Shown here piece after piece: positions 5,522 through 51,741 of a DNA stretch of 64,000 nt (within the stretch, counting starts at the first letter, position 1; every line of letters starts with the position of its first letter). The notes under the pieces were generated by a model that made no database searches, had not been told where the DNA came from, and saw nothing but the letters and a program-made list of their open reading frames with translations. Source of the DNA: an uncultured delta proteobacterium (lineage in GTDB: Bacteria > Myxococcota_A > Polyangia > Polyangiales > Polyangiaceae); the NCBI GenBank assembly GCA_963696385.1, contig CAVOKF010000007.1, positions 480,001-544,000 of the forward strand, in the 5' to 3' direction. Made by a program: the position numbers and the translations under genes.

Positions 5522-5677
5522 GTGGTCGGGAATGGAAAGCCGTCGTTGCCCGTCGGCGGATCGGCCAGTCGCAGGTGGCGCAATCTGGCTCAGGAGCATC
5601 GCGGGGAAGTGTGGGACTCGATTGGAGCGGGCAACGGCCCAGAGTTTGCTACCGTCTTGAAGCTGGAAGCTATCCGC

Positions 5678-6562
5678 ATGCGGGCATGGTCGAAGATCTT
5701 GAGAGTGGCCCTCGTGTCGTTGCTGTCCGCCGTGACCGCCGGCTGCGGAGGCCAATCGCTGTCCGATCCGGCGGAATCGCACAACGCGCAGCCCGCGGCC
5801 GGATTGGAGGGCTCGGGCGGGGACACGACGGAGGGGATCGCAGGCAGCGGCGCGTCGCCCGAAGCGGATGCGAGCGGGGTCGCGGTGAGCACCCCCGGCA
5901 CGGTCACGGGTGTCGGCTCGTGTTCGGGCGGCGGCAGTGCCGCGCCGTGCCTCATCGACGGCGCAAGTCCTGGGACTCCCATGACGTGTCCCAGCAATCA
6001 GTGCAACGTGCTCGGCTCCACGGGACCGGAGATCGCGATCACCGACGCCTGGGAGGGCGGGGCCTCCTCGGCGATGCTTGCCGGGGACCAGGCGTGCATG
6101 TCAGGCGAGACCGCCGCGTGGAGCAGCCAGACATGGGGAGCGATGCTTACGTTCAACTTGGGCCCAGAGGTCGACTCGACCGGCGACGCGGGCGTCCCTG
6201 GCTTGCCCGCCGCGATTGCGGCCCCCGTGCAGCTCACCGGATCGGGCGTCGACGTGCAGATTTCCCTCTCGAGCGGCCAGACCCCGACGGTACAGCAGGT
6301 CCTGCTCGTCGTCTTCGTGGCGGGCGCTGACGCGGGCACGTGGTACGCGGACGAATACTGCACGCAGCTCCCCGCGGCTGATGGACGACTGGTTTATGTA
6401 CCGTGGACGGCGCTCACGTACCAGTGCTGGCAGCCGGGCAACCCGGCACTGGCCGGGCCGCCTCAAACGGGAGTGGTGGGCGTTCAGGTGAGCGCCGTGT
6501 ATGAATCGACGGTGGCGGCCACGTACAACCTCTGCGTCGATCAGCTTTCGATCGCCCCCTGA
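5678..6562 (+). CDS. Lipoprotein with possible carbohydrate-binding C-terminal domain
   Basis: MRAWSKILRVALVSLLSAVTAGC lipobox; G/S linker; C-terminal VPWTALTYQCW...YNLCVDQL beta-sandwich-like domain. Confidence 0.65.
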   Translation: MRAWSKILRVALVSLLSAVTAGCGGQSLSDPAESHNAQPAAGLEGSGGDTTEGIAGSGASPEADASGVAVSTPGTVTGVGSCSGGGSAAPCLIDGASPGTPMTCPSNQCNVLGSTGPEIAITDAWEGGASSAMLAGDQACMSGETAAWSSQTWGAMLTFNLGPEVDSTGDAGVPGLPAAIAAPVQLTGSGVDVQISLSSGQTPTVQQVLLVVFVAGADAGTWYADEYCTQLPAADGRLVYVPWTALTYQCWQPGNPALAGPPQTGVVGVQVSAVYESTVAATYNLCVDQLSIAP

Positions 6563-6686
6563 TCCCATCGGCGTGCTCACCGAGCGCGAGCTCCACATCC
6601 GCGACGGGCGCTTTCTCCGACGGCGCGGTCGGGGGCTTCGTGGGGCGGTACCCTCGCGCAAGCCCGCCGCGTGATACAACGCGCAG

Positions 6687-8531: not shown

Positions 8532-8534
8532 CCC

Positions 8535-11153
8535 TTGGCCGCACCAAAAGGCGGAGGACGACCGCGAAGTGTAAGGAAGCGCGATTCGGCAGCGGACAAG
8601 ACCGACAACCTGCTCGATGCGACGTCGAAGCTCAAGACGGCGCCGTGCATTCCCGCGCTTCGTGAAGCCGTCCGCGCTTGGCGCGTTGGGGGCTACGAGG
8701 GCACCACGGACACGACGCGGCGCCTTTTGTCCTACTGGTTCCAGAGCGATCATCGACGTCCGAACGGGGCACGGTTCGCCTATCACCCTGCGCAACGCGA
8801 GGCCATCGAGACGCTGATCTTCGTGTGGGAGTCCGAGCGGGTCCGTTCGCGCGCGGCGCTTTTCGAACGGTACGCGCTCGACCTGGACGAGACGCCCGGC
8901 TCGCTCACCGATGCCTTCGCTCGATACGCCATCAAGATGGCCACCGGAAGCGGCAAGACCAAAGTGATCGCGCTCGCCGTGGCGTGGCAGTTCCTCAACG
9001 CGCAGCGAGAAAGCGGAGCCGCCAAGGACTACGCCCGGACCTTCCTTCTGCTCGCGCCAAACGTCATTGTGCATGAGAGGCTCCGGACGGACTTCGCCAG
9101 CGGTCGAATCTTTGAGGCCGATCCGGTTGTGCCACGCGACCTTCGCATGCTCTGGGACTTCGACTGCGTTCTTCGCGGGGACGGTGCGAAGGCGCATGCG
9201 GAGGGAACACTCTTTGTCACCAACATCCAGCAGTTCTACGAGCGGGGGCAGGAGGCGAGCACGGAGCCGGGGCCCATGGCGGCCGTCCTTGGGCCTCGCT
9301 CTATGTCAGCCTCGAAGCTCGAGGTGGCCGATTTTCGCGAGCGCATTGGCCTGCGCAGCGGCCCTCTTATGGTGTTGAACGACGAGGCTCATCACACCCA
9401 CGCCGAAGACGGTGAGTGGACCCGTGTCGTTCGAACCCTTCATGGCAGGACTCCGCTCAACCTGCAGGTTGATCTCTCCGCAACTCCCCGCTACCCGAAC
9501 GGCGCTCTCTTTCCGTGGACGATCTTCGACTACCCGTTGAAGCAGGCTCTTCTTGACGGGGTCGTCAAACGGCCGATGCGCGGCGTCCTCGACGTCCAGG
9601 AAGTGAAGTCCGAGCGAGCTTCGATCCGCTACGAGGGCTACCTCGTCGCTGCCGTCGAGAGGTGGAAGGAGTACGTCGAGCAGCTCAGCCCGCTTAGGAA
9701 GAAGCCTCTTCTGTTCGTGATGCTCTCGAGCACATCGGAGGCCGACGACGTCGCCGACTGGCTGCGCCGAACGTATCCCCACGAGCTCGGGGCTCCGCAC
9801 GTCCTGGTCATCCATACGAACGCGGCCGGTGAAGTCAACAAGGCCGACATCGAGAAGGCGCGCGCGCTCGCTCGAACGGTCGACGAGGAGACCAACGACA
9901 TCAGAGCCATCGTCTCCGTCCTGATGCTGCGCGAGGGATGGGATGTGCAGAACGTCACGGTCGTCGTCGGGCTACGCCCCTTCACGGCCCGCGCGAACAT
10001 CCTCCCTGAGCAAGCGATCGGACGCGGGCTTCGCCTGATGTTCCGGGGGCAACCCGCAGCTGGGTACCAAGAGCGGGTCGACATCATCGGCAACGACAAA
10101 TTTCTCGAGTTGGTCGATGACCTCGAGGAGCTGGAGGGGATCCGCTTCGATGCCTTCGAGGCGGACAAGGATCGCGTCCAGATCGACACGGTCGGTCCTA
10201 CGCCAGACCGCGCCGAATTCGACATCGCCATCCCGGTTCTCTCTTTTGCCCTCGTGCGCAAAAAAGGGCTTTCCGAAGCAATCGCCGCCCTCGACGTGAG
10301 GCGACTCGACCTCCCGCCCGGATTCAGCATCCGAATCGAGAGCGACGACCCGGCGACGTTCACGTACGAAGGCTTCGACGCCGCCACGGATCGCGAGGAG
10401 ATCGAGCGACGTTACGCCGTGCCCCGGGCGCGCACGGCGCAGGAGGTGATCGGCTACTACGCGCGCCGGATCGGCGATGATCTGAAGCTGCCTTCTCAGT
10501 TCGCTACTCTTGCGCCAAAGGTCCGGGAGTTCTTCGAGCACCGCTTTTTCGGCGAGCCGGTCGACCTCGACAATCCAAGGGTTGTCCGGTTCATGGCGAG
10601 TGCTGCTGCGCGCCATCTCACGGTCGGCGCGTTCGCAAGGGCTTTTCGAGCCGTCGCTGCAGCAAGCGCCGAGCCGCGCGTCGTCGCACAGGCTCGCCGG
10701 CTTTCAGAGTGCCCGCCCTTCCCATGGTCGCAGTGGCTCGTCGACACCGGCCGCACGGTCTTCAACCTCGTGGCCTGCGACAACGAGTACGAGCGCACGT
10801 TCGCGCGCTTTCTGGAGAGTGCCGAAGGCGTAAAGGCCTTCGCGAAGCTTCCGCTCCGTTTCGGTTTCGCCGTGGAGTACCTCGACGAGAAGGGCAGCCT
10901 GCGGCTTTACTACCCCGACTGGGTGGTTCGGGCCGCTGACGGTCGGTCGTACCTCCTGGAGACAACGAGGCAAGTCGCCTCCGACGTCGCCGCGAAGGAT
11001 CGCGCGGCGCGGCTGTGGTGCGAGAACGCGACGACCGTCGCAGGTCAAGAATGGCGCTACATGCGCGTCGAGCAGAGTGAATTCGAGCGCCTCGCGCCAG
11101 CGCAGTTCTCCGACCTCACCGCCCTCAGCAGGACGGTACACGGGGTCGCATGA
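8535..11153 (+). CDS. res: Type III restriction subunit (SF2 helicase-like plus PD-(D/E)XK domain)
   Basis: MATGSGKT, LNDEAHH, LSATP, MLREGWDV, EQAIGRGLR, C-terminal YYPDW...LLETT. Confidence 0.9.
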   Translation: MAAPKGGGRPRSVRKRDSAADKTDNLLDATSKLKTAPCIPALREAVRAWRVGGYEGTTDTTRRLLSYWFQSDHRRPNGARFAYHPAQREAIETLIFVWESERVRSRAALFERYALDLDETPGSLTDAFARYAIKMATGSGKTKVIALAVAWQFLNAQRESGAAKDYARTFLLLAPNVIVHERLRTDFASGRIFEADPVVPRDLRMLWDFDCVLRGDGAKAHAEGTLFVTNIQQFYERGQEASTEPGPMAAVLGPRSMSASKLEVADFRERIGLRSGPLMVLNDEAHHTHAEDGEWTRVVRTLHGRTPLNLQVDLSATPRYPNGALFPWTIFDYPLKQALLDGVVKRPMRGVLDVQEVKSERASIRYEGYLVAAVERWKEYVEQLSPLRKKPLLFVMLSSTSEADDVADWLRRTYPHELGAPHVLVIHTNAAGEVNKADIEKARALARTVDEETNDIRAIVSVLMLREGWDVQNVTVVVGLRPFTARANILPEQAIGRGLRLMFRGQPAAGYQERVDIIGNDKFLELVDDLEELEGIRFDAFEADKDRVQIDTVGPTPDRAEFDIAIPVLSFALVRKKGLSEAIAALDVRRLDLPPGFSIRIESDDPATFTYEGFDAATDREEIERRYAVPRARTAQEVIGYYARRIGDDLKLPSQFATLAPKVREFFEHRFFGEPVDLDNPRVVRFMASAAARHLTVGAFARAFRAVAAASAEPRVVAQARRLSECPPFPWSQWLVDTGRTVFNLVACDNEYERTFARFLESAEGVKAFAKLPLRFGFAVEYLDEKGSLRLYYPDWVVRAADGRSYLLETTRQVASDVAAKDRAARLWCENATTVAGQEWRYMRVEQSEFERLAPAQFSDLTALSRTVHGVA

Positions 11154-25839: not shown

Positions 25840-27171
25840 TCAGTTGTCCGAAAGGACGACCTCGGCGGGCTTCGCGGGCCTCGGCAAAATCCCCATCCGC
25901 TCGTAGATCGGCCGCACGGCCCGGCGCACCTCAGGCAGCGCGCGCAGGAAGATCGTGGCGGCAACGACGCAGATCGCTCCCCCGACGAGGATCGTGTTCT
26001 CGGCGCCGATGCGGGTTGCGAGCGCGCCGGCGATCAGGCTTCCGAGTGGAACCGTCCCGAAGAGCGACATGGCGAGGAGGCTCATCACCCGGCCGCGCTT
26101 GTCCTCGTCGACGATCGTCTGGATGATCGTGTTGCTCGCAGCGGTCTGCAGCATCATCCCGGTCCCGGCGAGCAGCAGCAGCGGCATCGCGAGCCAGAGG
26201 ATGTGAACCCGCGAGAATGCGATGAGGCCGAAGCCGAAGAGCGCCGCCGACATCACGACCACGCGGCCCAGCCCGAGGACGCTCGTTCGCGCGGCGAGGT
26301 AGAGCGCCCCCGCGAGGGCGCCGACGCCGGCGGTCGCCTGGAGGGTGCCCAGGGTCCCGGCGCCGCCGTGCATGACCTCGCGCGCAATGACCGGCAGGAG
26401 CACCGCGAACGGCCTGCCCGCCAGGCCCGTCACGGCGAGCAGTAGGAGCAGCGCCCGGATCGGCGCGAAGCCGCTCGCGTACCGGAACCCTTCGGCCATC
26501 TCGTGGAGCACGCGCGTGGACTTCGGCGTGCGCGGCGGCTCGTCGAGGCGCATGAGCAGCACCGAGAGGATGACGGCGCCGTAGCTGACCGCGTCGACGA
26601 AAAAACACCACCCCTCGCCGACCGCGGCGATGAGCACGCCGGCGATCGCGGGTCCGAGCAGGCGCGCCGCGTTGACCATCGACGAGTTGAGCGCAATCGC
26701 ATTGGGGAGATCGGCGCGGTCGTCCACCATCTGGACGACCATCGATTGGCGCACGGTCATGTCGAAGGCGTCGATGAGGCCCTGCAGAACGTTCAGCGCA
26801 ATGACCTCCCAGACCCGAATGACCCCGCTGATGGCGAGCCCCGCGAGCAAAAACGACTGGAGCATCGCGAGCGTCTGCGTGGCGAGCAGGACTCGGTACC
26901 GGTTCCAGCGGTCGACCATGACGCCGGCGAGCGGAGCGAGGACGAATGTGGGGATCTGTCCGGCGAACGCGAGCACGCCGAGGAGCCATGCGGAGCCCGT
27001 CAGCCGGTAGACGAGCCATGACGTGGCGACCTTCGTCAGCCAGGTGCCGATGAGCGAAATGCCCTGCCCCGTGAAGAAAAGGCGGTAGTTTCGGTGACGC
27101 AGGGCGCGTCCGACTGACGGCGCCCGGGGCGCGCCCCCTATCGGGTGAGCCGGGGGGGTCTCGGGTGCCAT
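25840..27171 (-). CDS. MFS transporter (MFS_3/DHA3-like)
   Basis: ALRHRNYRLFFTGQ.ISLIGTW, GVMVDRWNR, NAARLLGPAIAG, RGRVMS; about 12 hydrophobic segments. Confidence 0.92.
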   Translation of the reverse strand: MAPETPPAHPIGGAPRAPSVGRALRHRNYRLFFTGQGISLIGTWLTKVATSWLVYRLTGSAWLLGVLAFAGQIPTFVLAPLAGVMVDRWNRYRVLLATQTLAMLQSFLLAGLAISGVIRVWEVIALNVLQGLIDAFDMTVRQSMVVQMVDDRADLPNAIALNSSMVNAARLLGPAIAGVLIAAVGEGWCFFVDAVSYGAVILSVLLMRLDEPPRTPKSTRVLHEMAEGFRYASGFAPIRALLLLLAVTGLAGRPFAVLLPVIAREVMHGGAGTLGTLQATAGVGALAGALYLAARTSVLGLGRVVVMSAALFGFGLIAFSRVHILWLAMPLLLLAGTGMMLQTAASNTIIQTIVDEDKRGRVMSLLAMSLFGTVPLGSLIAGALATRIGAENTILVGGAICVVAATIFLRALPEVRRAVRPIYERMGILPRPAKPAEVVLSDN

Positions 27172-27244
27172 CGATCGGGATGTTACATTTTTGCGCGTGT
27201 CGGCCGACGTCGCCGAAGGGGCGCCTCCAACTCGGGTCGCCGGC

Positions 27245-27460
27245 CTATCCCGACGACGGAATCAAGTCCTGAACGCCCTTGACGATCTGGGCGCCGAGGT
27301 GGAACAGAAACCATAGGACGGCGCCGGCCATGATCACGATGCCGAGCGGGTAGGCCCACGCCATTCGCTTTGCGCGCGGGGTCGGCTGCCCGCATTTCGG
27401 GCAAGCCTGCGCCTCGTCGGAAACGTCCCCGCCGCAAGCCAAACATTTAACGAGACGCAT
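27245..27460 (-). CDS. Small zinc-ribbon membrane protein
   Basis: MRLVKCLACG..VSDEAQACPKCGQP followed by one TM helix. Confidence 0.75.
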   Translation of the reverse strand: MRLVKCLACGGDVSDEAQACPKCGQPTPRAKRMAWAYPLGIVIMAGAVLWFLFHLGAQIVKGVQDLIPSSG

Positions 27461-27570
27461 CAAGGGTGAGCGTAGTCGGTGCAAGGGCGGTGACTCGACC
27501 CATTTGAGATCGCGTCTGCGGGCCCGGCAGACGGTTCTCGCTCAGAAAGTGACCTCCGCGCCGCTGCTCC

Positions 27571-27656
27571 GTCGAGGCGACGCCATGCTCGGCGGACTGC
27601 ATCATGATTACCGCGCCGCGGCGTGAGGGTGGCAGACGACGAGACGAGCGATGACA
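27571..27656 (+). mobile_element. Remnant 3' end of an integrase-core (rve-type) transposase element
   Basis: Encodes (VEATP)MLGGLHHDYRAAA* with TGA at 27624-27626, the characteristic C-terminus of these transposases; an ACA about 30 bp later could be the element end. Confidence 0.6.
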
Positions 27657-27823
27657 GGCCACGGCCGCGGCGCGCAAGACCGGATCGGTCAAGGGCCCGA
27701 GGGCTCCGCCGCGCCCGAACACGCGTTCCGTCGAGGCCCGGTTCATCGTGCGCACTGCCTCGTTCGGGCTTTCGTGCGGACATCTATCGACCGGCTGGCG
27801 CATGTCGTCTACTTTGACGACCC

Positions 27824-28654
27824 ATGGGCGGGCCACGAGCAGCGAGGCACCGACAGGCGAAGTCGAAGCTCACGCCCATCGCCACGGCCGAGGTCGCGGC
27901 GGGGCTGGTCTCCGCCGTCGGACGAGACGGCGCCATCCTGAAGACGGAGGTCACCCGGCGGAGCTCGCGAACGCAGGTGCTCGACGTCTTCGATGCCCTC
28001 GTTCGCGCCGGCCTCGAGGTGAGCGCGCGCTTCGTTCGCCGCCCGCTCGAGACGCAGATCCTGGAACGCCTGAACGGGGGGCCGCTGTCGCTTCGCGGAC
28101 TGGACAAGGTTGTGCGGGGCGCCACCGCGCGCGAGACTGCGCAGATGGCGACGAGCCTGGTGGACCGGAACAGGGCTCGATTCGTCGTCCGCGGAAAGGA
28201 CCTGCTCCTCGCGCGCCCGGACGCACCTGTGCTCGACACGCACGCGCAACAGCGTTTGAAAGCGGCCGTGGGAGCACTCGGCGCCTCGCTGGCGCTGGCC
28301 GACAAGAAAGACGGATGCCTGCTCCAATCGGATGTCGAGGATGCGCTCAGGCCCTTCGTCGGATCGCCTGCGCCGCTTGCCTCCGCGGCGATTCACGATG
28401 TGGCGTCGCTGGTCGACGCACATCGCGAGGGGTCGGGGTTGACATCGGTTCCCAAGCTCGTTCGGCTGCTGGGCGGCCTTTCGGCGCGGGACGCGCTTCA
28501 CGCCGAGCTCTTGCGAGGCGCTCGCGCGGGCCGATTGGAGCTTCGCCCGGAGAGCGGGATGGGGCGCCTGTCGGCCGAAGACGCGTCCTTTTGCATCTCG
28601 GGGCCCCAGGGGTCTCGGCTTTCGTGGGTGCGCCGGATCGAGGGGCCGTCGTGA
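27824..28654 (+). CDS. Hypothetical protein, probable tandem winged-helix DNA-binding protein (gene 1 of operon)
   Basis: 276 aa; ILERLNGGPLSLRGL and LTSVPKLVRLL...LHAELLR...GRLELRP are wHTH-like; TGA overlaps the next GTG; start codon uncertain. Confidence 0.65.
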   Translation: MGGPRAARHRQAKSKLTPIATAEVAAGLVSAVGRDGAILKTEVTRRSSRTQVLDVFDALVRAGLEVSARFVRRPLETQILERLNGGPLSLRGLDKVVRGATARETAQMATSLVDRNRARFVVRGKDLLLARPDAPVLDTHAQQRLKAAVGALGASLALADKKDGCLLQSDVEDALRPFVGSPAPLASAAIHDVASLVDAHREGSGLTSVPKLVRLLGGLSARDALHAELLRGARAGRLELRPESGMGRLSAEDASFCISGPQGSRLSWVRRIEGPS

Positions 28655-30756
28655 CCACGCCGAGGGCCGCGACCAGGCCGTCGACGTCGCCCTTCGAAAA
28701 CAATCACGCGGACCCATGGGGCAAAGCGTTCGTTGACCTTCCCGAACTGAACGCGGGCGTCACCGATGCCATCGCGGGCGCGATCACCCAAGTTCGGAGC
28801 ACCTCGGGGCGCCGCGATGCCGAAGTTCGAACGACGAGTTTGCTGGTCCTCGGGCCCGCGGGGGCGGGCAAGACGCACTTGTTCGCGCGGCTGCGGCGCA
28901 AGCTCGGACCCAAAGCGGTTTTCGTGCATCTGCGACCGCTCGTCGGCACGGAGATGACGCCGCGGTACGTCCTCGGTCAAATCGTGCAGCAGCTTGGATA
29001 CGAAGTCGAGACCCGCGGCGGCGACCGCGGTCTCAAACAGCTCGAGGCGCTCGTTGGGTCCTCGCTCGCCCAGCTCGATGGGGTGTCGCCGGATTGGCCA
29101 AGAGCCTTTCTCGACGAGGTGATGGGGCTCGACGAGGGAGCACGCGCTCACAAGCTCGAGTGGGCGGTCGAGAGGCTGCTCGAGCGACACAGGGAAGCGG
29201 ACGAAACCTATCTGACTCGGCTTCTCCACGCCCCGTTTCTGAAACCGGCGCAGCAACGCGCTGCGCTGGCGTGGCTCTCTGGGCGAGACCTCGAGGAGCA
29301 GCAGATGCAGCGCCTCGGAGTCGCCGGAGGCCTGCCGGAGGAGCGCATCCTCCAGGCGCTGCAGACGCTCGGGCTTTTCGCTGCCCCGGGGTCTCCGATC
29401 GTGCTGGTCTTCGACCAGCTCGAAAATCTCATGGACGCCGAAGCGACAGGCTCGCGCGTGCGCGCGTATGCGAATCTCGTCGCCGAGCTGTTCGATGCGA
29501 CGCGCGGGTTCGTGCTCGTCCAGATGGCACTCGACAGCGAATGGGAGCATGCGATTCGTCCGCAGCTCAGCGAAGCGCAGAAGTCGCGCCTCGGGGGGCA
29601 TGCAATCCCCATCGCGCTGCCGACGCCGAGTCAGGCACGCGAACTCGTGCGCCGTTGGGTCGAGGGTCTGCCGGACCGGCCGCAGCCCTTTCCCTGGCCG
29701 TTCGGCGAAGAACGCGTTGAGCATTGGTCGCGGACCGCGGGCATGACCCCGCGTATGCTCATGATCGAGTGCCGGCAAGCGCTCGCCCTGGGGCCCGACG
29801 CACCCTTCGACGTGCCGGTCGCGGACGCGCAGCCGCCCACCGACGCGGTTCTCCGGAGCGTCGATCCGGACAACGACGACGCGGCGCTGAGGGCGGCTTG
29901 GGAGAGCCATCTCGCCGCGGCCCGGGGGGCACTCGACGAGGCGGCGGCCGATCGCCGGAGTGCGGATCCGGCGCGCCTGGTGGGCGGCATGGCGTCCTGT
30001 CTGCACTTTCTCAAGGACGCGCAGGCGAAGCGCGTCGATGCGCGGCAGCCCGTGCAGATCGTTGCGCGCGTAGGCGCGAGAGTCTGCTTCGTGGCGTTTG
30101 TCCATCAAACTCATCCGCGGTCGGTGGTGACCGCACTCGACCGCGCCTCCGACAGTCTGTCTCAAGGCACTGCGATCGCCGTCCGCGAGCGCGCCCTCGA
30201 ATTCGCGCCGACGTGGAAAAAGGTACACGCCAGTCTGGCGGTGCTTCGCGAGAGGGGACTGCAGTGGATTTCTCTGGAGAGAGACGATGCAGCGCGGCTG
30301 CTGGCGCTCGAGAGTTTCCTCGCCTCGGCCAAGTCGAAGGACCTGGAGGATGGTGCCGGACGGATCTTCGAGGAAGCGGAGGTGCGCGGCTGGATGGACC
30401 GCACGCTCGGGGTGACGAGTTGGCCGGTGGCTCGAGCCCTCGCGGGAGCGCGGGTAGAACGGGAGTGGGAGGGAGACGACGGCGCGGCGGAGCGGCGCTC
30501 CGAGCCCGTCCAAACGGGCAGCGCCCCTTCGAAAGGGCGGAGCGGAGAGATCGTCGCCGCGGAGACAGCGACCACCATCCGGGCGTGCCTCACGCAGCTG
30601 CGGATCGCGTCGCTCGAGCGGCTCGTGCGTGAGGTCGCGCGGGTGAAGTCGGCGGCTTCGCGGGCTGAGGTCGTGAGCGCGCTCGAAGCGATGCCCGGAC
30701 AGGTCCGCTGGTTCGGACGCGCGATTGTGGCCATCCGCGAGCAGGAGCCGCGATGA
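28651..30756 (+). CDS. AAA+ / P-loop ATPase with C-terminal extra domains (gene 2 of operon)
   Basis: GTG at 28651; Walker A GPAGAGKT (28852-28875), Walker B IVLVFDQLE, KSRL and TPRMLM arginine motifs; 701 aa. Confidence 0.85.
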   Translation: MTTPRAATRPSTSPFENNHADPWGKAFVDLPELNAGVTDAIAGAITQVRSTSGRRDAEVRTTSLLVLGPAGAGKTHLFARLRRKLGPKAVFVHLRPLVGTEMTPRYVLGQIVQQLGYEVETRGGDRGLKQLEALVGSSLAQLDGVSPDWPRAFLDEVMGLDEGARAHKLEWAVERLLERHREADETYLTRLLHAPFLKPAQQRAALAWLSGRDLEEQQMQRLGVAGGLPEERILQALQTLGLFAAPGSPIVLVFDQLENLMDAEATGSRVRAYANLVAELFDATRGFVLVQMALDSEWEHAIRPQLSEAQKSRLGGHAIPIALPTPSQARELVRRWVEGLPDRPQPFPWPFGEERVEHWSRTAGMTPRMLMIECRQALALGPDAPFDVPVADAQPPTDAVLRSVDPDNDDAALRAAWESHLAAARGALDEAAADRRSADPARLVGGMASCLHFLKDAQAKRVDARQPVQIVARVGARVCFVAFVHQTHPRSVVTALDRASDSLSQGTAIAVRERALEFAPTWKKVHASLAVLRERGLQWISLERDDAARLLALESFLASAKSKDLEDGAGRIFEEAEVRGWMDRTLGVTSWPVARALAGARVEREWEGDDGAAERRSEPVQTGSAPSKGRSGEIVAAETATTIRACLTQLRIASLERLVREVARVKSAASRAEVVSALEAMPGQVRWFGRAIVAIREQEPR

Positions 30757-32732
30757 GCCCATTTTCCGTCACCGAGGTTCGCAATGCGCTGCGCTGCCCG
30801 CGGATCTTCGCGCTCGGCAGGATGAAGAACCGAGCGGTCGCGTTTCCCATCGGGTCGTCGTGTCTCGGCGCCTCGTTTCATCGGATCGTCGACCGGTTCG
30901 CGCGAACCGTCGAGACCCCTCCTCTGCGCGTGGCCGGGCTCGAAGAGGGAGCCCCGCTCGACGCGATCGAAGCGGAGCTTCGGGCGTGGGTCCTCGGACT
31001 GCTTGCCGACGAGCTCGACGCGGATGCGACCCTCGCCACCATGCCCGGCGAAGTCGACGATCTCGCTCAGGCGCTTCGTGAACTTGCGCGTCACTTGGCT
31101 GCGCGGTTGCGGCGCTTTCCTGGGCGGCCTTCCGACGCGCTCCGCAAGGTCCTGCGAGACAGCGAGCGCCCGATCGAGGCGGTCGTCGAGGAGGGGATCC
31201 TGCTGCGCGGCACCATGGACGCGCTCTATGGCGAACCCGACGGCTCCCTCGAAGTCATCGAGTACAAACTGACCGACGACGCCAATGACGGGCTCGATCG
31301 CGCGCAGGCGGCGCTCTATGGCCACTTGATCGAGCTATCGACGGGAATGGCACCAAAGCCGGTGGTCCTTCGGTTCATGCCGATGCTACGCGAAACCGCG
31401 ATTTCGAAGGTCGAAGCGGACGACCTCGTCCGCCGAACGGTCCTGCCGGTCGTACGGGACATGGTTCGGTGGGTGGACGAGCCGGGCACGGCACCGGCCG
31501 CCGAGCGGCGCGATCTTTGTCCCGTGTGCCCGCTCGCCGAAGCCTGCGCGGAGGCCTATCCGGATCGCGTCGGGCCGCGAGACGACCCGCCTGCGGCCGC
31601 AGCGCGGCCTCGCGTGGATGCCGCCGGGGCCATCGGGCCGGCCGTGACCTCTCCCATCCTCAGCGCATCGTCCTTTGACGAGGACGGCCGAAAACAGGCC
31701 AATCGCCTGCGCGACAGCATCCTCGCCGAGCTTCGCAAACATGGCATCAATGCGATGTGCCCTCGTCCGCCGGTCGTGGGTCCAACGCTGTTCGAGGTCG
31801 AGGTCACACGGGCACGCGGATCGGTCAAGGCCCTCGATCAGATGGCCGAGGACGTGAAGCACCGGCTCGCGAGCGAGGACGGCACGGAGGCGTCCTACGA
31901 ACAACGAGCCGGAAGGCGGCTGTTTGTCGTCCGACGACCCGTGCCGCGCAAGGTGCTGCTCTCGCCGCTGCTCGCCGAAGCTCACGACTACCTCGCCGGG
32001 CAGCCGGGCCGCTTCGTCGTCGGCCAGCGCCCGACGGGCGAGGTCCTATGCGGCGACCTGTCGGACGCGAGCACGCCCCATCTGCTCGTCGGCGGGACGA
32101 CGGGCAGCGGCAAGTCCGTTCTTCTTTGCAGTCTCATCGCGAGTCTCGTCCATTGTCATGGACCGTCCGCGATCCGCTTCATCCTCATCGACCCGAAACG
32201 GGTCACATTCAACCTGCCGTCCTTCCAATCGGCGGTCGGTGCGCACCTGGATGGGCCGATTGGCCACGACGCGGACGAAGCGATCCCGATTATCGAGCGG
32301 CTCGTCGATGTGATGGAGGAACGCTACCGCCTCTTCGAGCAGGCGCACGTGAGCGACATCCGCGAGTACAACGAGAGCCGGATCCCGGGGGAATGCCTCG
32401 AGCGAAAGATCGTGGTGATGGACGAGTTCCAGGATCTGACCGCGGAGAAATCCACCGCGACACCGTTCTTCGCCGGCGTAAAGCGCCTCGGCGCAAAAGC
32501 ACGGGCGGCGGGGGTGCACCTCATTCTCGCCACCCAGCGCCCGGACAAGGATGTCGTCCCTCCCCTGCTGAGGACCAACCTCGCCGGCAAGATCGCCCTC
32601 CGCGTGGCGACGGCAACGAACTCACGGATCATCCTCGACGAAGGAGGAGCGGAGCGCCTGCTCGGCAAGGGAGACCTTCTGGCGAATCTCGGCCACGGCC
32701 TCGTTCGCGCCCAGGCGCCGCTCGTCGGGTGA
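30753..32732 (+). CDS. Cas4/AddB-like Fe-S PD-(D/E)XK nuclease fused to FtsK/SpoIIIE ATPase (gene 3 of operon)
   Basis: RCPR...LRGTMD...VIEYK...QAALY...CPVCPLAEAC, then PHLLVGGTTGSGKS, LIDPK, VMDEFQDL, LILATQRP, GAERLLGKGD; no TM segments; ATGA overlap. Confidence 0.9.
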   Translation: MSPFSVTEVRNALRCPRIFALGRMKNRAVAFPIGSSCLGASFHRIVDRFARTVETPPLRVAGLEEGAPLDAIEAELRAWVLGLLADELDADATLATMPGEVDDLAQALRELARHLAARLRRFPGRPSDALRKVLRDSERPIEAVVEEGILLRGTMDALYGEPDGSLEVIEYKLTDDANDGLDRAQAALYGHLIELSTGMAPKPVVLRFMPMLRETAISKVEADDLVRRTVLPVVRDMVRWVDEPGTAPAAERRDLCPVCPLAEACAEAYPDRVGPRDDPPAAAARPRVDAAGAIGPAVTSPILSASSFDEDGRKQANRLRDSILAELRKHGINAMCPRPPVVGPTLFEVEVTRARGSVKALDQMAEDVKHRLASEDGTEASYEQRAGRRLFVVRRPVPRKVLLSPLLAEAHDYLAGQPGRFVVGQRPTGEVLCGDLSDASTPHLLVGGTTGSGKSVLLCSLIASLVHCHGPSAIRFILIDPKRVTFNLPSFQSAVGAHLDGPIGHDADEAIPIIERLVDVMEERYRLFEQAHVSDIREYNESRIPGECLERKIVVMDEFQDLTAEKSTATPFFAGVKRLGAKARAAGVHLILATQRPDKDVVPPLLRTNLAGKIALRVATATNSRIILDEGGAERLLGKGDLLANLGHGLVRAQAPLVG

Positions 32733-32880
32733 CGGCCGCGATCCCAGAGTCGCAAGTAGGCGGTGTCGCCCGGAGGGGTGACCTCGACTTCGACAGGTGC
32801 TCGCGGACGCGCTGGGGGAGCACCGGGGGCGAAGCGGCTGCGAGATCTCCTCGAGAGCCGTCGGTGAAGCTCGTTTCGGC

Positions 32881-33477
32881 TCAGGCGCGCGCCCGGGCTT
32901 CGACGGCTGAGCATTGACCAGCCCGCACATGCAGGACCCGGGCCTCGACCTGACGCACCAACTCGACGTCGTGCGTCGCGAGGAGCACCGTCGACTCTCG
33001 CAGCCTTCGGACGACCGCGTCGCGCGTCTCCGCGTCGAGGGCGTTGGTGGGCTCGTCGAGCACGAGCAGCGCCGGGGTGCCGAGCAGCGCAGCGCAAAGC
33101 GACACCCGCTGGCGCTGCCCGGTCGACAGCGCCGAGATCCGCCTGCCCAGCAGCGCTTCGACGCCGAGCCCTTCGACCTCGGGAGATCCGACGCCTTGCA
33201 GGGATGCGACCACGTCAAGCCACTCTGAGACGAGCAGGTGGTCCGGGATGTCCGGCTTCTCCGGCGCGTACCCCACCGACGCCGGCCGGACGACCCTCCC
33301 GGAGTTGGGGTCGATCACGCCAGCCGCGATGGCGAGGAGCGTCGACTTGCCGGACCCGTTGTCGCCGAGCAACGCCACGCGCTCTCCGGCGAACACCGTC
33401 AGCGAGATCTCGTGCACAGCCCGCTTGGTGCCGAAGTACTTCGTCACGCGATCGAGCGAAAGGACCGGCGCTACCAC
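32881..33477 (-). CDS. ABC transporter ATP-binding protein
   Basis: GDNGSGKS, LSTGQRQR, LVLDEPTNALD, ATH; GTG overlaps the upstream stop. Confidence 0.9.
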   Translation of the reverse strand: MVAPVLSLDRVTKYFGTKRAVHEISLTVFAGERVALLGDNGSGKSTLLAIAAGVIDPNSGRVVRPASVGYAPEKPDIPDHLLVSEWLDVVASLQGVGSPEVEGLGVEALLGRRISALSTGQRQRVSLCAALLGTPALLVLDEPTNALDAETRDAVVRRLRESTVLLATHDVELVRQVEARVLHVRAGQCSAVEARARA

Positions 33478-48453: not shown

Positions 48454-51400
48454 TTAGGAGAGCAGCAGTTCGAGGTCGGCGCGGGTCAACCCACCGACGG
48501 CAGCTCCACCCTCGCCGAACAGCGCGTCGGCCAGCTCCCGCTTTTGCGACTGCAGCTGCGCGACCTTCTCCTCTACGGTACCGCGTGCGATCAACCGGTA
48601 GGCGAGCACGGTTCGCGCCTGGCCAATCCGATGGGCACGGTCGATCGCCTGCGCCTCGACCGCGGGATTCCACCACGGGTCAAGCAGAAATACGTATTCT
48701 GCCGCGGTGAGGTTCAGCCCTGTCCCGCCGGCCTTGAGGCTCAGCAGGAACACGCTGCACCGTGCGTCCGACTGGAAGCGCGCCACGCATCCGGCGCGGT
48801 CGGTCGTGGCGCCGTCGAGGTACTCGTATTCGATGCCGCTCCGTTCGAGGCGGTCGCGCACGATGGAGAGGAGGCTCGTGAACTGCGAAAATACGAGTGC
48901 CTTCTGACCCTGGGTGCGCAGGGCGTCGAGGTGTTGGAGAAGGACGTCGAGTTTGGCGCTCGGTTCGCCGCGCAGTCCTTCGTCGATGAGCCCCGGATGG
49001 CAAGCTGCCTGACGCAGACGAAGCAGTGCCTCGAGAATGTGGGCGGTCGAGCGGGCCACACCGTCTCGGGCGACTCTCCGGCCGAGCGATCGCCGGTAGT
49101 GGCCGTGCAACTGGTCGTACCGGCGCCGCTGCTCGCCTTCGAGCTCGCACGAGATCGTCTGCTCAATCCGATCGGGCAGCTCGGGCGCGACCTGGCGCTT
49201 CGTGCGGCGAAGAAAGAATGGGCGCACCGCCCGTGCGAGTACGTCACGCGTAGCGTCGTCGATACGATGGGTCCCCTGCGCCAGCGTGGACAGGGCGTTC
49301 GAGGCGCCGAGCAGGCCCGGATTCAAGAAATCGAGCAATGCCGCGAGTTCGCCCAGGTGGTTTTCTACCGGCGTTCCGGTCAGCGCGAGCCGGTGCCGGG
49401 CTCGCAGCGCACGCGCGGCCTGCGCCGTCGCCGTGCGCGCGGTCTTGATGGCCTGGGCCTCGTCGAGGATGACGTAATCGAAGTCAAGCTGCGAGAGCGC
49501 CTCGAGATCGCTGCGGAGCAGCCCGTACGTGGTCAGCACCAAATCGTAGTCACCGAAGTTGCCGCCCGGATCGGCCCGTGTGGGGCCGTCATGTTCCAGC
49601 ACGCGCAGCCGCGGTGCAAAGCGGGCCACCTCCGCCGCCCAGTTGAACAAGACCGACCGGGGTGCCACGACGAGCGAAGGTCCGGGCGCGGGGCGCTCCT
49701 GGCGACGCGCATCGAGCATGGCGAGCACCTGGACCGTCTTGCCGAGACCCATGTCGTCGGCCAGGCAGCCCCCGAACCCAAGCTGGCGAAGCGCTTTGAA
49801 CCATCCAAGCGCATGGCGCTGGTACTCGCGAAGGCTTCCCTGGAATGTGCGCGGAGGGTCGAGCGGCGTGATGTCGGCGAACGCGTGGACATCCCGGCGC
49901 AGCGCGGCGAACCCGGCATCGAACGTAGGGAGTCGTTCGCTCTCCAAAAGCGCGGCGACGAGCGGCGCCTGCACCTTGTGAAAGCGCAGCCCGTCATCGC
50001 GCGGCGCAGCCATCGCGACCCATCGGCGCAATTTCTCGATCTGGTCGTCGGAAAGCTCGCCCACCGAGCCGTCGGCGAGGACGATGTTTCGCCGCTTCTG
50101 CCGAAGCGCCGCGAGCAGTTCGGGAAACGCCGCGTCGATTCCGTCGAAGCGAGCCTGGACCCCCACCTCCAGCCAGTCGATGCCCGTCGAGACCGAGACC
50201 GCGAAAGCGCCGGCGGAACGACGAAGGGTGCCGTTGACTTCGATGCGCCAGCCCAGCCCGACGAGCGCTCGCGCGGCCGGCTCGACCTTGCCGAGCGCAA
50301 TGCGGTGGGCACAGCGCTCCGCCGTCCGACGTTGCCAGTGCTGCAGCGGGCGGACCCCGACGGCCTCGAGTTGTCCGCGAGCGGTGTCCTCGGCGCCCGC
50401 GTCCCGAACGACCAAGCGCCGGCGGGCGCGGTCGAAAACGGCCGAGCCCCGGGTGTCCAATGGGACGCGCACCCCGTCGTAGTCGAAGCCCGCTTCGACC
50501 CGTTGCCCACCCTCGATCGCGGCTTGCCGGTTGGTCTGGAGCAGAGCGTAGGGCCGTCCGGCGCCGTGAACCTCGGGCACGGCATGCTCGGGCGGCAGCG
50601 TCAACCGCGGAGCGCGTGGGGCGCGGAACAACGCGTCGATGAAATCGTCGACCTCATGGATCGGAAGCGCGGCAGGCTGTGAGGCCCTTTCCTCCGCCAA
50701 CCACGCGAAGTGTCCGCGGTCATCGAAGGGGGCCACGCGATCGGCCCAAAACGCGAAACCGCCTATCAGAACGAGCTCCGGATCGCACGCGGGGACGGCT
50801 TCGTCGGCTCGCTCCAGAATGGCCCGGACGCGAAGCGTGTCGCCTTCATCAGGCTGGGTCACCGCGAGGGCGAGCGAGTACGGCTCGGGATCCCAACGGA
50901 GCGGAACACGGTCGGGCTCGCCGAGATACGCGCGGCCGCTCGCGACGAGCCTCTCGAGGAGCTCTCTCGACGCACGTCCGACGGAAAAGGTTCCCGCGCC
51001 GAGCGCACCGTGGGCGGCCCCATGTCCACCGGCGGCCTGGCTGGCCGCGTCGAGGAGCCCGAGCACCCAGGCGTCGGACTCCGGCACGAAGCTCCCCCAA
51101 GGCCTTCCGATGCGGGCGGGACGCCAGAGACCGGCGTTCTGCGGACCGACCCTCTCCACGACCCGCACCACCAGCGAACCCCGAGCCTTGGTCGCCACGG
51201 GATCCAGGACGAAACGAAGCGTGCTCCGTCCGGGCTCCGGAGGCCGAGCGGATGCCGCTCGCGCCGCCATGAGGTCACGCCAGCTCGCTTCAGGACCGCG
51301 CGTGGAGGGACGCTTTGGGATGGCCGGGGTGATCTGCGTCGGTCCTCGGTCCCGCTCGTCCCCGTCCCGGCCTTTGTTGTCATCGTCCGTCGCGTCGCCG

Positions 51401-51741
51401 GCGGACACATCGATCTCGATGGATCGCAGCTCGTCGCCGTGCGGAAGGACACCGTCGCGCTCGGCGACCAAGAGGGTGGCCCACACGTGCTTGCAAGCGT
51501 CGCCTCCCAAGAAATGCGGACAGCTGCAGCTCGCCCGCAGCACGCTATCCACGGCGTGAAGCTCCACGTCGTAGCGCTGCTGCCCTCGCACTTCAGCGAT
51601 CACGGCTTCGGGTGTGGTCCGCACGATCCGGACGAACCCGCGCGTCGCGTAGTCGACCCCTCGAACGCGTGTGATCGGCGTGAAGATGCCCTCCAACCGG
51701 CGGAGGCTGGACGGCGCCACGGCAAATAGCGTACGCGTCAC
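48454..51741 (-). CDS. SWIM zinc-finger SNF2-family helicase/ATPase
   Basis: CSCPHF...CKHVWA (SWIM); LADDMGLGKT, ILDEAQ, LTGTPVEN, SLKAGGTGLNL, DPWWNPAVE.QAIDRAHRIGQ. Confidence 0.95.
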   Translation of the reverse strand: MTRTLFAVAPSSLRRLEGIFTPITRVRGVDYATRGFVRIVRTTPEAVIAEVRGQQRYDVELHAVDSVLRASCSCPHFLGGDACKHVWATLLVAERDGVLPHGDELRSIEIDVSAGDATDDDNKGRDGDERDRGPTQITPAIPKRPSTRGPEASWRDLMAARAASARPPEPGRSTLRFVLDPVATKARGSLVVRVVERVGPQNAGLWRPARIGRPWGSFVPESDAWVLGLLDAASQAAGGHGAAHGALGAGTFSVGRASRELLERLVASGRAYLGEPDRVPLRWDPEPYSLALAVTQPDEGDTLRVRAILERADEAVPACDPELVLIGGFAFWADRVAPFDDRGHFAWLAEERASQPAALPIHEVDDFIDALFRAPRAPRLTLPPEHAVPEVHGAGRPYALLQTNRQAAIEGGQRVEAGFDYDGVRVPLDTRGSAVFDRARRRLVVRDAGAEDTARGQLEAVGVRPLQHWQRRTAERCAHRIALGKVEPAARALVGLGWRIEVNGTLRRSAGAFAVSVSTGIDWLEVGVQARFDGIDAAFPELLAALRQKRRNIVLADGSVGELSDDQIEKLRRWVAMAAPRDDGLRFHKVQAPLVAALLESERLPTFDAGFAALRRDVHAFADITPLDPPRTFQGSLREYQRHALGWFKALRQLGFGGCLADDMGLGKTVQVLAMLDARRQERPAPGPSLVVAPRSVLFNWAAEVARFAPRLRVLEHDGPTRADPGGNFGDYDLVLTTYGLLRSDLEALSQLDFDYVILDEAQAIKTARTATAQAARALRARHRLALTGTPVENHLGELAALLDFLNPGLLGASNALSTLAQGTHRIDDATRDVLARAVRPFFLRRTKRQVAPELPDRIEQTISCELEGEQRRRYDQLHGHYRRSLGRRVARDGVARSTAHILEALLRLRQAACHPGLIDEGLRGEPSAKLDVLLQHLDALRTQGQKALVFSQFTSLLSIVRDRLERSGIEYEYLDGATTDRAGCVARFQSDARCSVFLLSLKAGGTGLNLTAAEYVFLLDPWWNPAVEAQAIDRAHRIGQARTVLAYRLIARGTVEEKVAQLQSQKRELADALFGEGGAAVGGLTRADLELLLS

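Follow-up and report, generated by a model that had tools for sequence, protein, structure and literature searches.

In 2024, Rakesh, Aravind and Krishnan described in silico a class of "Orc/CDC6-coupled HerA/FtsK capture systems" (Nucleic Acids Res 2024; PMC10853773), which their paper casts as a predicted 'HerA/FtsK capture' counter-invader system and places in 'mobile gene neighborhoods'. As set out there, the architecture combines an Orc/CDC6 ATPase, an active REase, a HerA/FtsK motor with FtsK-alpha and an extra fast-evolving multi-wHTH gene, and the hallmark of the ATPase is an inactive REase inserted between the AAA+ core and the C-terminal wHTH. Section 19 of the same paper presents SspB-SspC as a triple wHTH protein together with an AAA+ ATPase of the Cdc6/Orc clade. 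In the literature we found in-silico descriptions of the class only, and no experimental defence phenotype for any member.

Here we examine a three-gene cassette in a 64,000-nucleotide stretch of DNA from an uncultured member of the Polyangiaceae (hereafter the window). The architecture, originally predicted to be undescribed, had already been predicted computationally in 2024, and it appears in PMC10853773; on balance we consider the cassette a probable member of that class. The domain calls made from the DNA were correct, and the accompanying picture of a sensor/loader (genes 1 and 2) directing a translocating nuclease (gene 3) to foreign DNA equals the model that PMC10853773 had published as a prediction.

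Results

A compact operon with sharp borders

Three co-oriented open reading frames, here g1, g2 and g3, occupy the predicted coordinates (Table 1), and a GC3-based gene caller independently arrived at identical starts for all three. The GTG start of g2 overlaps the stop of g1 within GTGA (28651-28654) and the ATG start of g3 overlaps the stop of g2 within ATGA (30753-30756), as can be read in the sequence, and similar overlaps recur in relatives: with a crude gene caller, g1 and g2 overlap by 4 bp at 15 of 22 scored loci, and g2 and g3 overlap by some length at 17 of 20, by 4 bp in 9 of these. Brief overlaps of start and stop codons are frequent in GC-rich bacteria, so that a compact genome of this kind might produce them by chance between three adjacent genes of unrelated function. 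We disfavour this explanation strongly and give it hardly any weight, since 45 of 62 related loci keep the three genes colinear in the predicted order, in Polyangiaceae and Kofleriaceae as well as in cyanobacteria (in the last with g2 at 24-29% identity), and since natural fusions of g2 to the motor exist.

Table 1. Positions of the cassette and its features in the window
Feature	Position	Strand	Description
Whole cassette	27757..32733	+	Block common to two species of the genus (window genome and G003)
67-nt leader 5' of g1	27757..27823	+	Only upstream stretch common to window and G003
g1	27824..28654	+	276 aa; tandem winged-helix domains at about 18-72, 75-130, 185-271
g2	28651..30756	+	701-aa P-loop ATPase, GTG start; AAA_16/AAA_22
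g2 Walker A GPAGAGKT, residues 68-75	28852..28875	+	Homolog alignment
g2 Walker B region VLVFDQLENL, residues 251-260	29401..29430	+	Homolog alignment
g3	30753..32732	+	659 aa, nuclease fused to FtsK alpha-beta motor; ATG start
g3 RecB/Cas4-type PD-(D/E)XK nuclease, residues 4-265	30762..31547	+	PDDEXK_1, E 3.9e-17 (Pfam)
g3 C-x2-C-x5-C triad C256, C259, C265	31518..31547	+	With C15 forms 1+3 pattern
g3 FtsK-alpha-like region, residues about 300-422	31650..32018	+	Profile alignment to 2iuu
g3 FtsK beta (RecA-like) motor	32019..32729	+	FtsK_SpoIIIE, residues 423-597, E 1e-28 (Pfam)

Searched with blastn against the window, a second species of the genus (G003) carries the cassette at 92.5% identity over 4983 bp (locus L013, 3713-8678), with similarity ending sharply at both borders and differing DNA on either side; a second comparison with this genome placed the left edge at the same position. 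The flanks are less similar, at 84.6% for the MFS gene and 90.3% for the ABC genes, and the ABC genes lie on another G003 contig. The leader, which contains the inverted repeat GTCGTC-N6-GACGAC at 27804-27821, is presumably the promoter or 5' UTR of g1; a scan of 27100-33100 detected no sigma-70 consensus site.

A neighbourhood of metabolic and transport genes

The neighbours of the cassette in the window are ordinary metabolic and transport genes; among 26 flanking genes there is no recognisable defence gene and there are no CRISPR or cas genes, and no methylase or other self-marking gene accompanies the cassette. The 145 genes in the flanks of 25 related loci reveal no shared context. PADLOC-specific defence neighbours, for example a type IV restriction enzyme, Cas3g/Cas8g, AbiEi, GmrSD-like and PDC-M28 genes, occur at 9 of these 25 loci and at none of the other 16, which are raw counts taken without a background rate. 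The proposed check for defence islands found variable flanks and nine loci with specific defence-type neighbours.

An integrase scar suspected about 200 bp upstream found no support: none of six open reading frames located in 27183-27941 resembles an integrase at E<=1, and PF00589 has 36 matches across the genome at that threshold and 0 inside the window. These searches bear on whether the cassette is cargo or a remnant of a mobile element and serves that element, whose DNA it might pump and process for its transfer or partition, or acts as an addiction or exclusion module. FtsK-like motors do drive DNA transfer in conjugative elements, g3 has weak NCBIfam matches to TraB and TraD, and the sharp borders and differing contexts of the cassette, along with the 'mobile gene neighborhoods' of PMC10853773, point the same way, as does a 10-nt direct repeat at the left border and near the 3' end of the cassette. 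The repeat is weak, however: the window has 3 copies where 0.58 would be expected, a count reached by 4 of 100 shuffles, and it is imperfect in G003. No integrase or transposase adjoins the cassette, the window holds no tRNA gene, and the flanks of the 25 related loci contain a single transposase-like gene (at L051). Searches of 72,556 plasmids, 50,697 phages and IMG/VR also gave no match to the system, so that carriage by mobile elements is not obvious, and we regard a mobile-element origin of this kind as quite improbable.

g1 encodes a fast-evolving winged-helix protein

The assignment of g1 as a wHTH protein is borne out by an AF2 model (pLDDT 90) with three wHTH-like modules, by a match of residues 73-135 to MarR/ArsR wHTH domains at Z of about 10 and by Foldseek, whose best matches are tandem winged-helix proteins; no Pfam, PADLOC or NCBIfam family scored above cut-off. 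With its homologs g1 shares a median 35% identity, less than any of the other three parts of the operon in 35 of 36 loci, and by this measure it is the fastest-evolving subunit. Identity rises along the operon, from g1 through g2 (median 40%) and the nuclease (54%) to the motor (62%), a gradient seen in 35 of 36 loci and in keeping with diversifying pressure on a specificity subunit.

g2 encodes an AAA ATPase with an atypical Walker B motif

The g2 product matches AAA_16 (E 6.8e-8) and AAA_22 (E 2.8e-7) in Pfam; in its family (n=21) both are found in all 21 members, BrxC_BrxD in 11 and IstB_IS21 in 8, and the best ORC match among PDB sequences is ORC4, a weak one (E 0.96). Judged by these family matches, the ATPase would be of an ORC/Cdc6- or BrxC-like type, and the arginine-finger/sensor-2-like motifs and wHTH tail proposed for it are candidate features. 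Its N-terminus is consistent with the aligned homologs, and both Walker motifs predicted from the sequence hold across them: LGPAGAGKTH (67-76) and VFDQLENL (253-260) are kept in 21 of 21, with G68, G71, G73, K74 and T75 invariant and P69 and A72 nearly so in the first, and V251, V253, F254, D255, Q256, L257, E258, N259 and L260 invariant at the second. This Walker B (DQLE) is unusual, in that Q occupies the place where a catalytic E is normally found, and a conserved E follows two residues later; a fused relative described below, P0297, has VFDQIEHL in this region. In the C-terminal part, a conserved stretch at 400-600 aligns with a cyanobacterial ATPase family. Sequence-only comparisons in search of an inactive REase insert were negative: neither a profile built on the 300 C-terminal residues and run against the PDB nor an Atlas search with residues 400-701 turned up anything, and hhalign found no match between the g2 family and the g3 nuclease.

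g3 fuses a Cas4/AddB-like nuclease to an FtsK motor

The nuclease motifs of g3 comprise D156, E170-Y-K172 and Q185xxxY189, set within the predicted arrangement of one N-terminal and three C-terminal cysteines. Among 18 sequences, down to 29% identity, D156, K172, Q185 and Y189 are invariant, and E170 and the cysteines C15, C256, C259 and C265 are nearly invariant. A 1+3 cysteine pattern is that of the Cas4/AddB iron-sulfur nucleases, and by analogy the g3 cysteines probably bind an Fe-S cluster. The family profile also matches the nuclease domains of AdnA/AdnB (E 1e-6 to 5e-5).

Downstream of the nuclease, the family profile aligns at positions 288-664 with the FtsK alpha+beta structure 2iuu (E 1e-94), beginning at chain residue 37 of 2iuu, which pairs with profile position 288. 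Pfam makes no FtsK_alpha call in g3 itself at E<=0.1 and does call this domain at the matching place in distant homologs. The motor matches PDB FtsK at E 1.5e-33 and contains Walker A GGTTGSGKS (447-455), Walker B DEFQD (557-561) and ATQRP (593-597), with invariant residues across the family alignment. The motor had been called complete, which holds for the alpha and beta domains but not for FtsK_4TM and FtsK_gamma, neither of which Pfam finds.

Relation to Dnd/Ssp, Cas4 and cellular FtsK proteins

By profile match, the nearest counterpart of the g3 motor is the C-terminal domain of SspH/DndH, a defence protein, with the PADLOC SspH model matching at 1e-62 over model positions 1534-1753 of 1766 only. 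The suggested PADLOC comparison thus yielded a related motor, but no whole-system model exists in PADLOC 2.0. The likeness to DndFGH/SspFGH extends to a REase domain and motor on one polypeptide and to a triple-wHTH partner, DndG there and g1 here. DndH, however, has eight domains over about 1700 aa, ending in REase and HerA/FtsK, and its reported helicase-remnant, TRD and inactive-methylase domains have no equivalent in g3, just as the cassette lacks a DndF-type kinase and nearby dnd/ssp modification genes. We therefore rejected an assignment to DndFGH/SspFGH: at 659 aa g3 is too short, the SspH match covers only the last 220 model positions, and PADLOC gives g1 and g2 no Dnd or Ssp match at E<=0.1. 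A parallel to the first two genes is SspB-SspC as presented in section 19 of PMC10853773, where a triple winged-helix binder is paired with an ORC-like ATPase; in contrast to that system, the cassette has no phosphorothioation genes and no Ssp-model match for g1 or g2.

With Cas4, AddB and AdnAB, g3 shares D...E-x-K, QxxxY and the cysteine arrangement, and differs in that its partner is an FtsK ring ATPase rather than an SF1 helicase. We rejected g3 as a CRISPR Cas4 because its TIGR00372 score of 22.4 bits falls short of the cut-off of 65 and no cas genes lie among the 26 flanks; its score for Pfam Cas_Cas4 is 15.0 against a cut-off of 22.7. Identification as a cellular FtsK/SpoIIIE was likewise rejected. 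The alpha and beta motor is shared, and g3 is 50% identical over residues 546-656 to the genome's own FtsK, a separate gene on contig C4, but g3 has neither a 4TM membrane anchor nor the gamma (KOPS-reading) domain; a conventional FtsK from the genus (L006) has both.

Patchy distribution and exchangeable effectors

Within the order, g2 was found in 46 of 401 genomes, or 41 of the 305 that are of high quality, and it is spread over 26 of 136 genera. A full-length g3 ortholog was found in 2 of 25 genomes from the genus (G000 and 24 others), with one further partial copy; another genome of the genus (G008) carries a second, divergent subtype. The family is sampled by >120 clusters each for g2 and g3 and occurs in cultured Polyangium and Sorangium strains. 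The checks for conserved order and patchy occurrence, proposed to separate such a system from core housekeeping genes, both came out in its favour: the kept order, patchy spread, variable flanks and defence-type neighbours at 9 of 25 loci speak for an accessory system.

Among relatives the effectors are shuffled, with HerA or FtsK, with or without exonuclease and with or without nuclease. Natural fusions, as encoded, link g2 to the motor: L061 encodes a 951-aa g2::FtsK fusion, and P0297 (1436 aa) joins a g2-like part (27% identity over residues 22-591, E 5e-33), a nuclease and HerA in one protein. Four loci (L047, L067, L068 and L071) have no effector gene, and the cassette copies in L048 and L060 are decayed.

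An equivalent operon in cyanobacteria with a first gene annotated as RcaD

The similar cyanobacterial clusters that the original prediction mentioned do exist, as filamentous cyanobacteria carry an equivalent three-gene operon; 12 of 16 inspected loci have the order of a protein of ~280 aa, an ATPase of ~700 aa and a nuclease-FtsK protein. The g2 and cyanobacterial ATPase families match by hhalign with a probability of 98.9% (E 1.5e-17, 552 columns), and they differ in Walker B, which is FDQLE in g2 and FDNLD in the cyanobacterial family. The third genes are homologous to g3, with 21-26% identity in the nuclease domain and 42-47% in the motor domain, and many of the cyanobacterial ones have an extra N-terminal 3'-5' exonuclease that g3 lacks. 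In NCBI the product of the first gene goes by 'transcription factor RcaD'. Between g1 and RcaD there is no blastp match, and hhalign gives a probability of 2.6% (E 0.018) for an alignment limited to 79 colinear columns at the C-terminus. PMC2799420, citing Noubir et al. 2002, reports binding of RcaD to a phycocyanin promoter, helped by RcaG, a putative ATPase; RcaD was interpreted as a transcription factor of chromatic adaptation and not as an immunity protein.

These findings raise the alternative of a host DNA-transaction or regulatory module, in which g1 and g2, as a sequence-specific DNA-binding pair in the manner of RcaD/RcaG, would control transcription or chromosome organisation and g3 would process or move the cell's own DNA, for instance double-strand-break ends or DNA trapped in the course of the myxobacterial life cycle. 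The shared gene order, the homology of g2 to the ATPase that follows RcaD, the reported promoter binding of RcaD, the resemblance of the g3 nuclease to the end-processing nucleases AdnA/AdnB and the metabolic and transport neighbours in the window all favour it. On the other side, the occurrence of g2 in a minority of genomes, a genomic context that is not conserved, cassette borders that are sharp between sister species, the very fast divergence of g1, decaying copies and shuffled effector domains are traits of accessory conflict systems and not of housekeeping, and we consider a host module unlikely.

Discussion

The cassette shares with the capture systems, as PMC10853773 describes them, a P-loop AAA+ ATPase (by family matches a candidate member of the ORC/Cdc6-like assemblage), an active REase-fold nuclease with conserved catalytic residues, an FtsK ATPase following FtsK-alpha (found in a subset of the class) and a fast-evolving multi-wHTH gene, which here is g1. 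The likeness extends to relatives in which a 3'-5' exonuclease is fused to the motor protein or several domains are merged into single polypeptides, and to a patchy, context-free distribution with shuffled domain arrangements. The four-cysteine, Cas4/AddB-type feature of g3 is a point on which sections 19, 22 and 26 of that paper make no mention.

Taken with the family comparisons, this architecture suggests that the three-gene operon probably attacks invading DNA, and we infer both the formation of a complex and an order of events. The fast-evolving, triple winged-helix g1 would recognise particular DNA sequences or structures, and g2, ORC/Cdc6- or BrxC-like and with a DQLE Walker B of the slow-hydrolysis type, would serve with it as an ATP-gated switch or loader. 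The g3 protein would form an FtsK-like ring on double-stranded DNA and pump it, while its N-terminal RecB/Cas4-type, probably Fe-S, nuclease domains may cut or degrade the DNA during pumping. As no modification gene is present, discrimination between self and foreign would have to rest on recognition by g1-g2 or on a feature of the invading DNA, which might be free ends or intermediates of replication, transfer or packaging.

A bolder and, in our estimation, rather unlikely extension is that g1-g2 constitutes a sequence-reading, ATP-gated 'licensing' core of ORC type with swappable effectors: in this cassette it would load a DNA-shredding nuclease-FtsK ring, and elsewhere it would act with FtsK alone (L061), with HerA (P0297) or, at the four effector-less loci, with none. 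If this were true, six Fe-S nucleases on an FtsK pump would shred replicons bearing the recognised site or structure, and immunity would read the replication or packaging sites of invaders rather than unmodified DNA, leaving the host genome unmarked. The cyanobacterial RcaD would then be the reader subunit of such a system. More generally, the RcaD-annotated gene sits in a nuclease-pump operon, and its published role may merit a second look.

Should the prediction of a capture system hold, this would be one of few immune architectures to combine an ORC-like loader with a nuclease-bearing ring translocase; it would work without a modification enzyme. The myxobacterial family suits a first experimental test, as it is compact (three genes, 5 kb) and well sampled, and its natural variants, namely fusions, two-gene forms and decayed copies, can guide mutagenesis.

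The predicted HerA/FtsK capture class

Judged from its sequence, the cassette formed by g1 (winged-helix protein), g2 (AAA ATPase) and g3 (nuclease-FtsK fusion) is genuine and well conserved, and is a probable member of a class known by in-silico prediction only. The original prediction had presented the system as undescribed, a claim that falls away because the available text of Rakesh, Aravind and Krishnan (NAR 2024; PMC10853773) already predicts this architecture, in which an Orc/CDC6 AAA+ ATPase accompanies what the authors name 'HerA/FtsK capture' systems. The core set out in that text comprises an Orc/CDC6 ATPase with an inactive REase inserted before a C-terminal wHTH, together with an active REase, a HerA/FtsK motor and a wHTH protein; one HerA/FtsK set carries an FtsK-alpha captured from cellular FtsK, and in some systems the motor protein also bears a fused 3'-5' exonuclease. 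The cassette agrees with the class, as that text describes it, in every feature compared; an Orc/Cdc6 fold and an inactive-REase insert are putative in g2, as are the wHTH-like tail and arginine-finger motifs of the original prediction. The model recurs in the available text of a subsequent publication by that group (PMC12839542). We looked in the literature for experiments on 'FtsK capture' systems and found none, the search bringing up PMC10853773 only; PADLOC holds no model for the whole system.

Gene order, fusions and a single unit

The start/stop overlaps described in the original prediction were read directly, as GTGA at the g1/g2 junction and ATGA at the g2/g3 junction, each start codon overlapping the preceding stop, and a codon-position GC caller chose the same three starts (see table). 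Scanning with a g2 alignment and one genome per species, we found 62 related loci, and the order g1-g2-g3 on one strand is preserved by tblastn in 45 of them, g3 following g2 in 51. In four of the 11 loci that lack g3 the sequence runs out within 500 bp of g2; the other seven have room for it (L047, L067, L068, L070, L071, L072, L073), and four of these show a clean two-gene g1-g2 form. Two natural fusions bear on joint action: locus L061 encodes one 951-aa protein that joins g2 to an FtsK domain and has no nuclease, and the metagenomic protein P0297 (1436 aa) unites a g2-like half (27% identity across residues 22-591, E 5e-33) with a nuclease domain and a HerA-type ATPase. These fusions are the best available evidence for cooperation between g2 and the motor.

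Coordinates of the cassette, neighbouring features and related loci
Feature	Sequence	Position	Strand	Detail
Zinc-ribbon protein gene	window	27245-27463	-	hydrophobic tail
Block shared with G003	window	27757-32733
10-mer GCCTCGTTCG	window	27757-27766		exact left border of shared block
Inverted repeat GTCGTC-N6-GACGAC	window	27804-27821		perfect; ends 2 nt before g1 ATG
g1	window	27824-28654	+	276 aa
g2	window	28651-30756	+	701 aa, GTG start
g3	window	30753-32732	+	659 aa
10-mer GCCTCGTTCG	window	32698-32707		35 nt before g3 stop
SWIM + SNF2-associated + SNF2 helicase gene	window	48454-51720	-	1088 aa
Divergent three-gene version	L161 (G008:C2)	4909-9586
Gapped g2-g3 region	L048 (Polyangium sp. 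y55x31)	8001-10804
g3 in two ORFs	L060	10028-11979
RcaD-annotated first gene	L159	2374-3231

Borders and surroundings

The window has a GC content of about 67%, the nearest homologs of its genes are named Polyangiaceae (Myxococcota), and the genes around the cassette are ordinary, with MFS transporter, glyoxalase and S15 peptidase genes upstream and ABC transporter genes downstream. The block shared with the sister species G003 is 92.5% identical across 4983 bp, and the likeness to the window ends at both cassette borders: in place of the 640 bp separating the MFS gene from the cassette, G003 has 2.1 kb of unrelated DNA, and the downstream ABC genes are found on a different contig of G003, with at least 6.6 kb of other sequence before them. 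MFS orthologs in three further genomes (G017, G021, G014) have wholly different neighbours, so no unoccupied cassette site is definable. An integrase scar had been proposed upstream of the cassette, for which we find no support: a Pfam search of six ORFs at 27183-27941 (E<=1) gave no integrase, and neither PF00589, searched for across the genome, nor a tRNA gene turned up in or near the cassette.

Several smaller features accompany these borders. The small zinc-ribbon gene lies in the 640-bp stretch that separates the cassette from the MFS gene and has no counterpart in G003, and a large SNF2-type helicase gene lies 16 kb downstream. The inverted repeat sits within a 67-nt conserved leader, differs in one arm in G003, and may act as an operator or form an RNA hairpin. 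There are three copies of the 10-mer GCCTCGTTCG in the window where 0.58 would be expected, a statistically weak excess (4 of 100 shuffles reach that count); each of the two copies at the cassette has one mismatch in G003, and the recurrence may be chance.

Distribution and accessory character

The cassette is patchily distributed. Within the genus, 2 of 25 genomes (24 relatives and the source genome G000) carry a full-length g3 ortholog, and one further, partial copy lies at the end of a contig; g2 is detected at E<=1e-20 in at least 46 of 401 genomes across the order, a lower bound as a divergent version in the congener G008 falls below this cut-off (41 of 305 high-quality genomes; 26 of 136 genera). 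Identity to G000 for cellular FtsK and g2, respectively, is 96 and 92% in G003, 87 and 69% in G044, 80 and 33% in G014, 67 and 64% in G138, and 75 and 55% in G382; on these figures the G014 copy of g2 is evidently far too divergent for an ortholog, and the one from G138, of another genus, is little more distant than the one from the congener G044. Going along the operon, median identity to homologs climbs from g1 (35%) through g2 (40%) and the nuclease (54%) to the motor (62%), a gradient found in 35 of 36 loci.

The flanks of 25 loci, three genes on each side (145 proteins), share no context. Specific defence-type neighbours appear in 9 of the 25 (PADLOC, raw count), including a full-length type IV restriction enzyme, Cas3g/Cas8g, AbiEi with PDC-S70, PDC-M28A-C, a GmrSD-like protein and Uma2/PDC-S03. 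This count leaves out hits judged generic, namely Ser/Thr kinases matching PD-T4-6, sigma-54 activators matching RtcR, an ABC ATPase matching mad3, OmpA matching ZorB, cysteine desulfurase matching SspA/DndA, UvrD matching GajB, and a partial mad2 (L014, L018, L035, L054, L056, L060, L062, L063). Two copies look decayed: in L048 the match to g2 ends at residue 450 and g3 is taken up again from residue 149, a gap that suggests an internal deletion, and in L060 g3 is split. Patchy distribution, varied context, sharp borders in G003, the rate gradient and the decayed copies together give the cassette the profile of an accessory conflict system and not of a housekeeping gene set.

Side branches of this family are also visible. 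G008 carries, within the genus, a second and divergent three-gene version (L161) encoding proteins of 271 aa, 635 aa (g2-like; 28% identity to g2, E 7e-18) and 639 aa (PDDEXK and FtsK, the motor 37% identical to that of g3), its second and third genes overlapping by 4 bp; a g3-like match similar to the G008 one occurs in G013. In a quick IQ-TREE tree of g2 (42 rows), L040 and L036, a locus whose MAG carries the label Holophagaceae (Acidobacteriota) and a locus with the label Kofleriaceae, fall inside the Polyangiaceae rows, a position that points to horizontal transfer or mis-binning. That the cassette serves a mobile element is a reading we consider improbable: searches of plasmids gave no match of g2 or of the g3 nuclease domain, those of phages no g2 match, and IMG/VR one P-loop-only match.

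Components and proposed mechanism

No family in Pfam, PADLOC or NCBIfam matched g1 over cut-off. Its AlphaFold2 model, built from an alignment of 28 homologs drawn from the related loci, has a mean pLDDT of 90 and contains three helix-strand modules (approximately 18-72, 75-130 and 185-271); residues 73-135 superpose on MarR/ArsR-type winged helices (Z ~10, rmsd 1.6-2.4 Å over 60-62 residues), and the top whole-chain Foldseek matches are tandem winged-helix proteins (RNA polymerase III subunit, UFL1, SelB). Among the best 50 matches listed by the Foldseek and structure superposition searches, DndG, SspB and FokI are absent.

For g2, Pfam gives AAA_16 (6.8e-8), AAA_22 (2.8e-7) and weakly BrxC_BrxD, the first two matching all 21 family members and the last 11 of 21. 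The Walker A motif GPAGAGKT of the original prediction is conserved across these 21 members (G68, G71, G73, K74 and T75 invariant), and the Walker B noted there as atypical is equally constant, its region VFDQLENL being invariant, with Q at the usual catalytic-E position and E two residues further, a substitution that we infer would make it a switch-type, slow-hydrolysis site. Against the PDB, the whole-family profile gives weak P-loop matches (best E 0.13) and a profile of the last 300 residues gives nothing; an Atlas search with residues 400-701 reached a best score of 0.78. By hhalign, g2 matches g1 with a probability of 0.4% and g3 at the P-loop only.

Pfam assigns g3 to PDDEXK_1 (residues 4-265, 3.9e-17) and FtsK_SpoIIIE (423-597, 1e-28), with no membrane anchor or gamma domain; a separate, ordinary FtsK is encoded on another contig of the genome. 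Across 18 sequences, down to 29% identity, D156, K172, Q185 and Y189 are invariant, and the 1+3 Cys arrangement first pointed out in the original prediction likewise holds (C15, C256, C259 and C265 nearly invariant, as is E170). This RecB-family motif set and one-plus-three cysteine pattern are those of the Cas4 and AddB Fe-S nucleases, by analogy with which the cysteines may bind a putative Fe-S cluster. The g3 family profile matches the nuclease domains of AdnA/AdnB (E 1e-6 to 5e-5) and, over positions 288-664, the FtsK alpha+beta structure 2iuu (E 1e-94); in PADLOC the motor matches the last 220 model positions of SspH (1e-62) and mad8 (4e-24).

Most likely, g1 reads, g2 licenses, and g3 pumps and cuts DNA. 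As a DNA reader, g1 would define a site at which g2, an ATP-gated ORC-like partner, would license assembly of g3, an FtsK-type ring that would pump duplex DNA past its own nuclease domains. As the cassette has no modification enzyme, sparing of the chromosome would have to rest on g1-g2 recognition or on features of incoming DNA, such as ends and transfer or packaging intermediates. A similar mechanism is proposed for HerA/FtsK capture in the available text of PMC10853773.

The cyanobacterial counterpart and RcaD

Scanning metagenomes with a remote homolog of g3 gave 80 loci, and the similar cyanobacterial clusters mentioned in the original prediction proved real, with an ORF of ~280 aa, one of ~700 aa and a nuclease-FtsK gene in succession in 12 of the 16 loci inspected. 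The second and third cyanobacterial genes are homologs of g2 and g3, respectively (for g2, by hhalign at 98.9% probability, E 1.5e-17, 552 columns), and the third often bears an N-terminal 3'-5' exonuclease. The first gene of L159 encodes a protein 100% identical to one that NCBI names 'transcription factor RcaD', as many of its further matches are named; the second is named only 'AAA family ATPase'. In Nostocales and other cyanobacteria (L159, L081-L129), an RcaD-annotated gene opens an operon of the exonuclease-nuclease-FtsK kind. According to the available text of PMC2799420, RcaD binds a phycocyanin promoter and is followed downstream by RcaG, a putative ATPase. That the Polyangiaceae cassette regulates host genes or processes host DNA in the manner of RcaD/RcaG, a reading to which this shared operon lends some weight, seems to us unlikely. 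Any homology of g1 itself to RcaD is tentative, the hhalign probability being 2.6%, in a colinear C-terminal stretch only. For the cyanobacteria, the role of RcaD as a chromatic-adaptation regulator may deserve re-examination.
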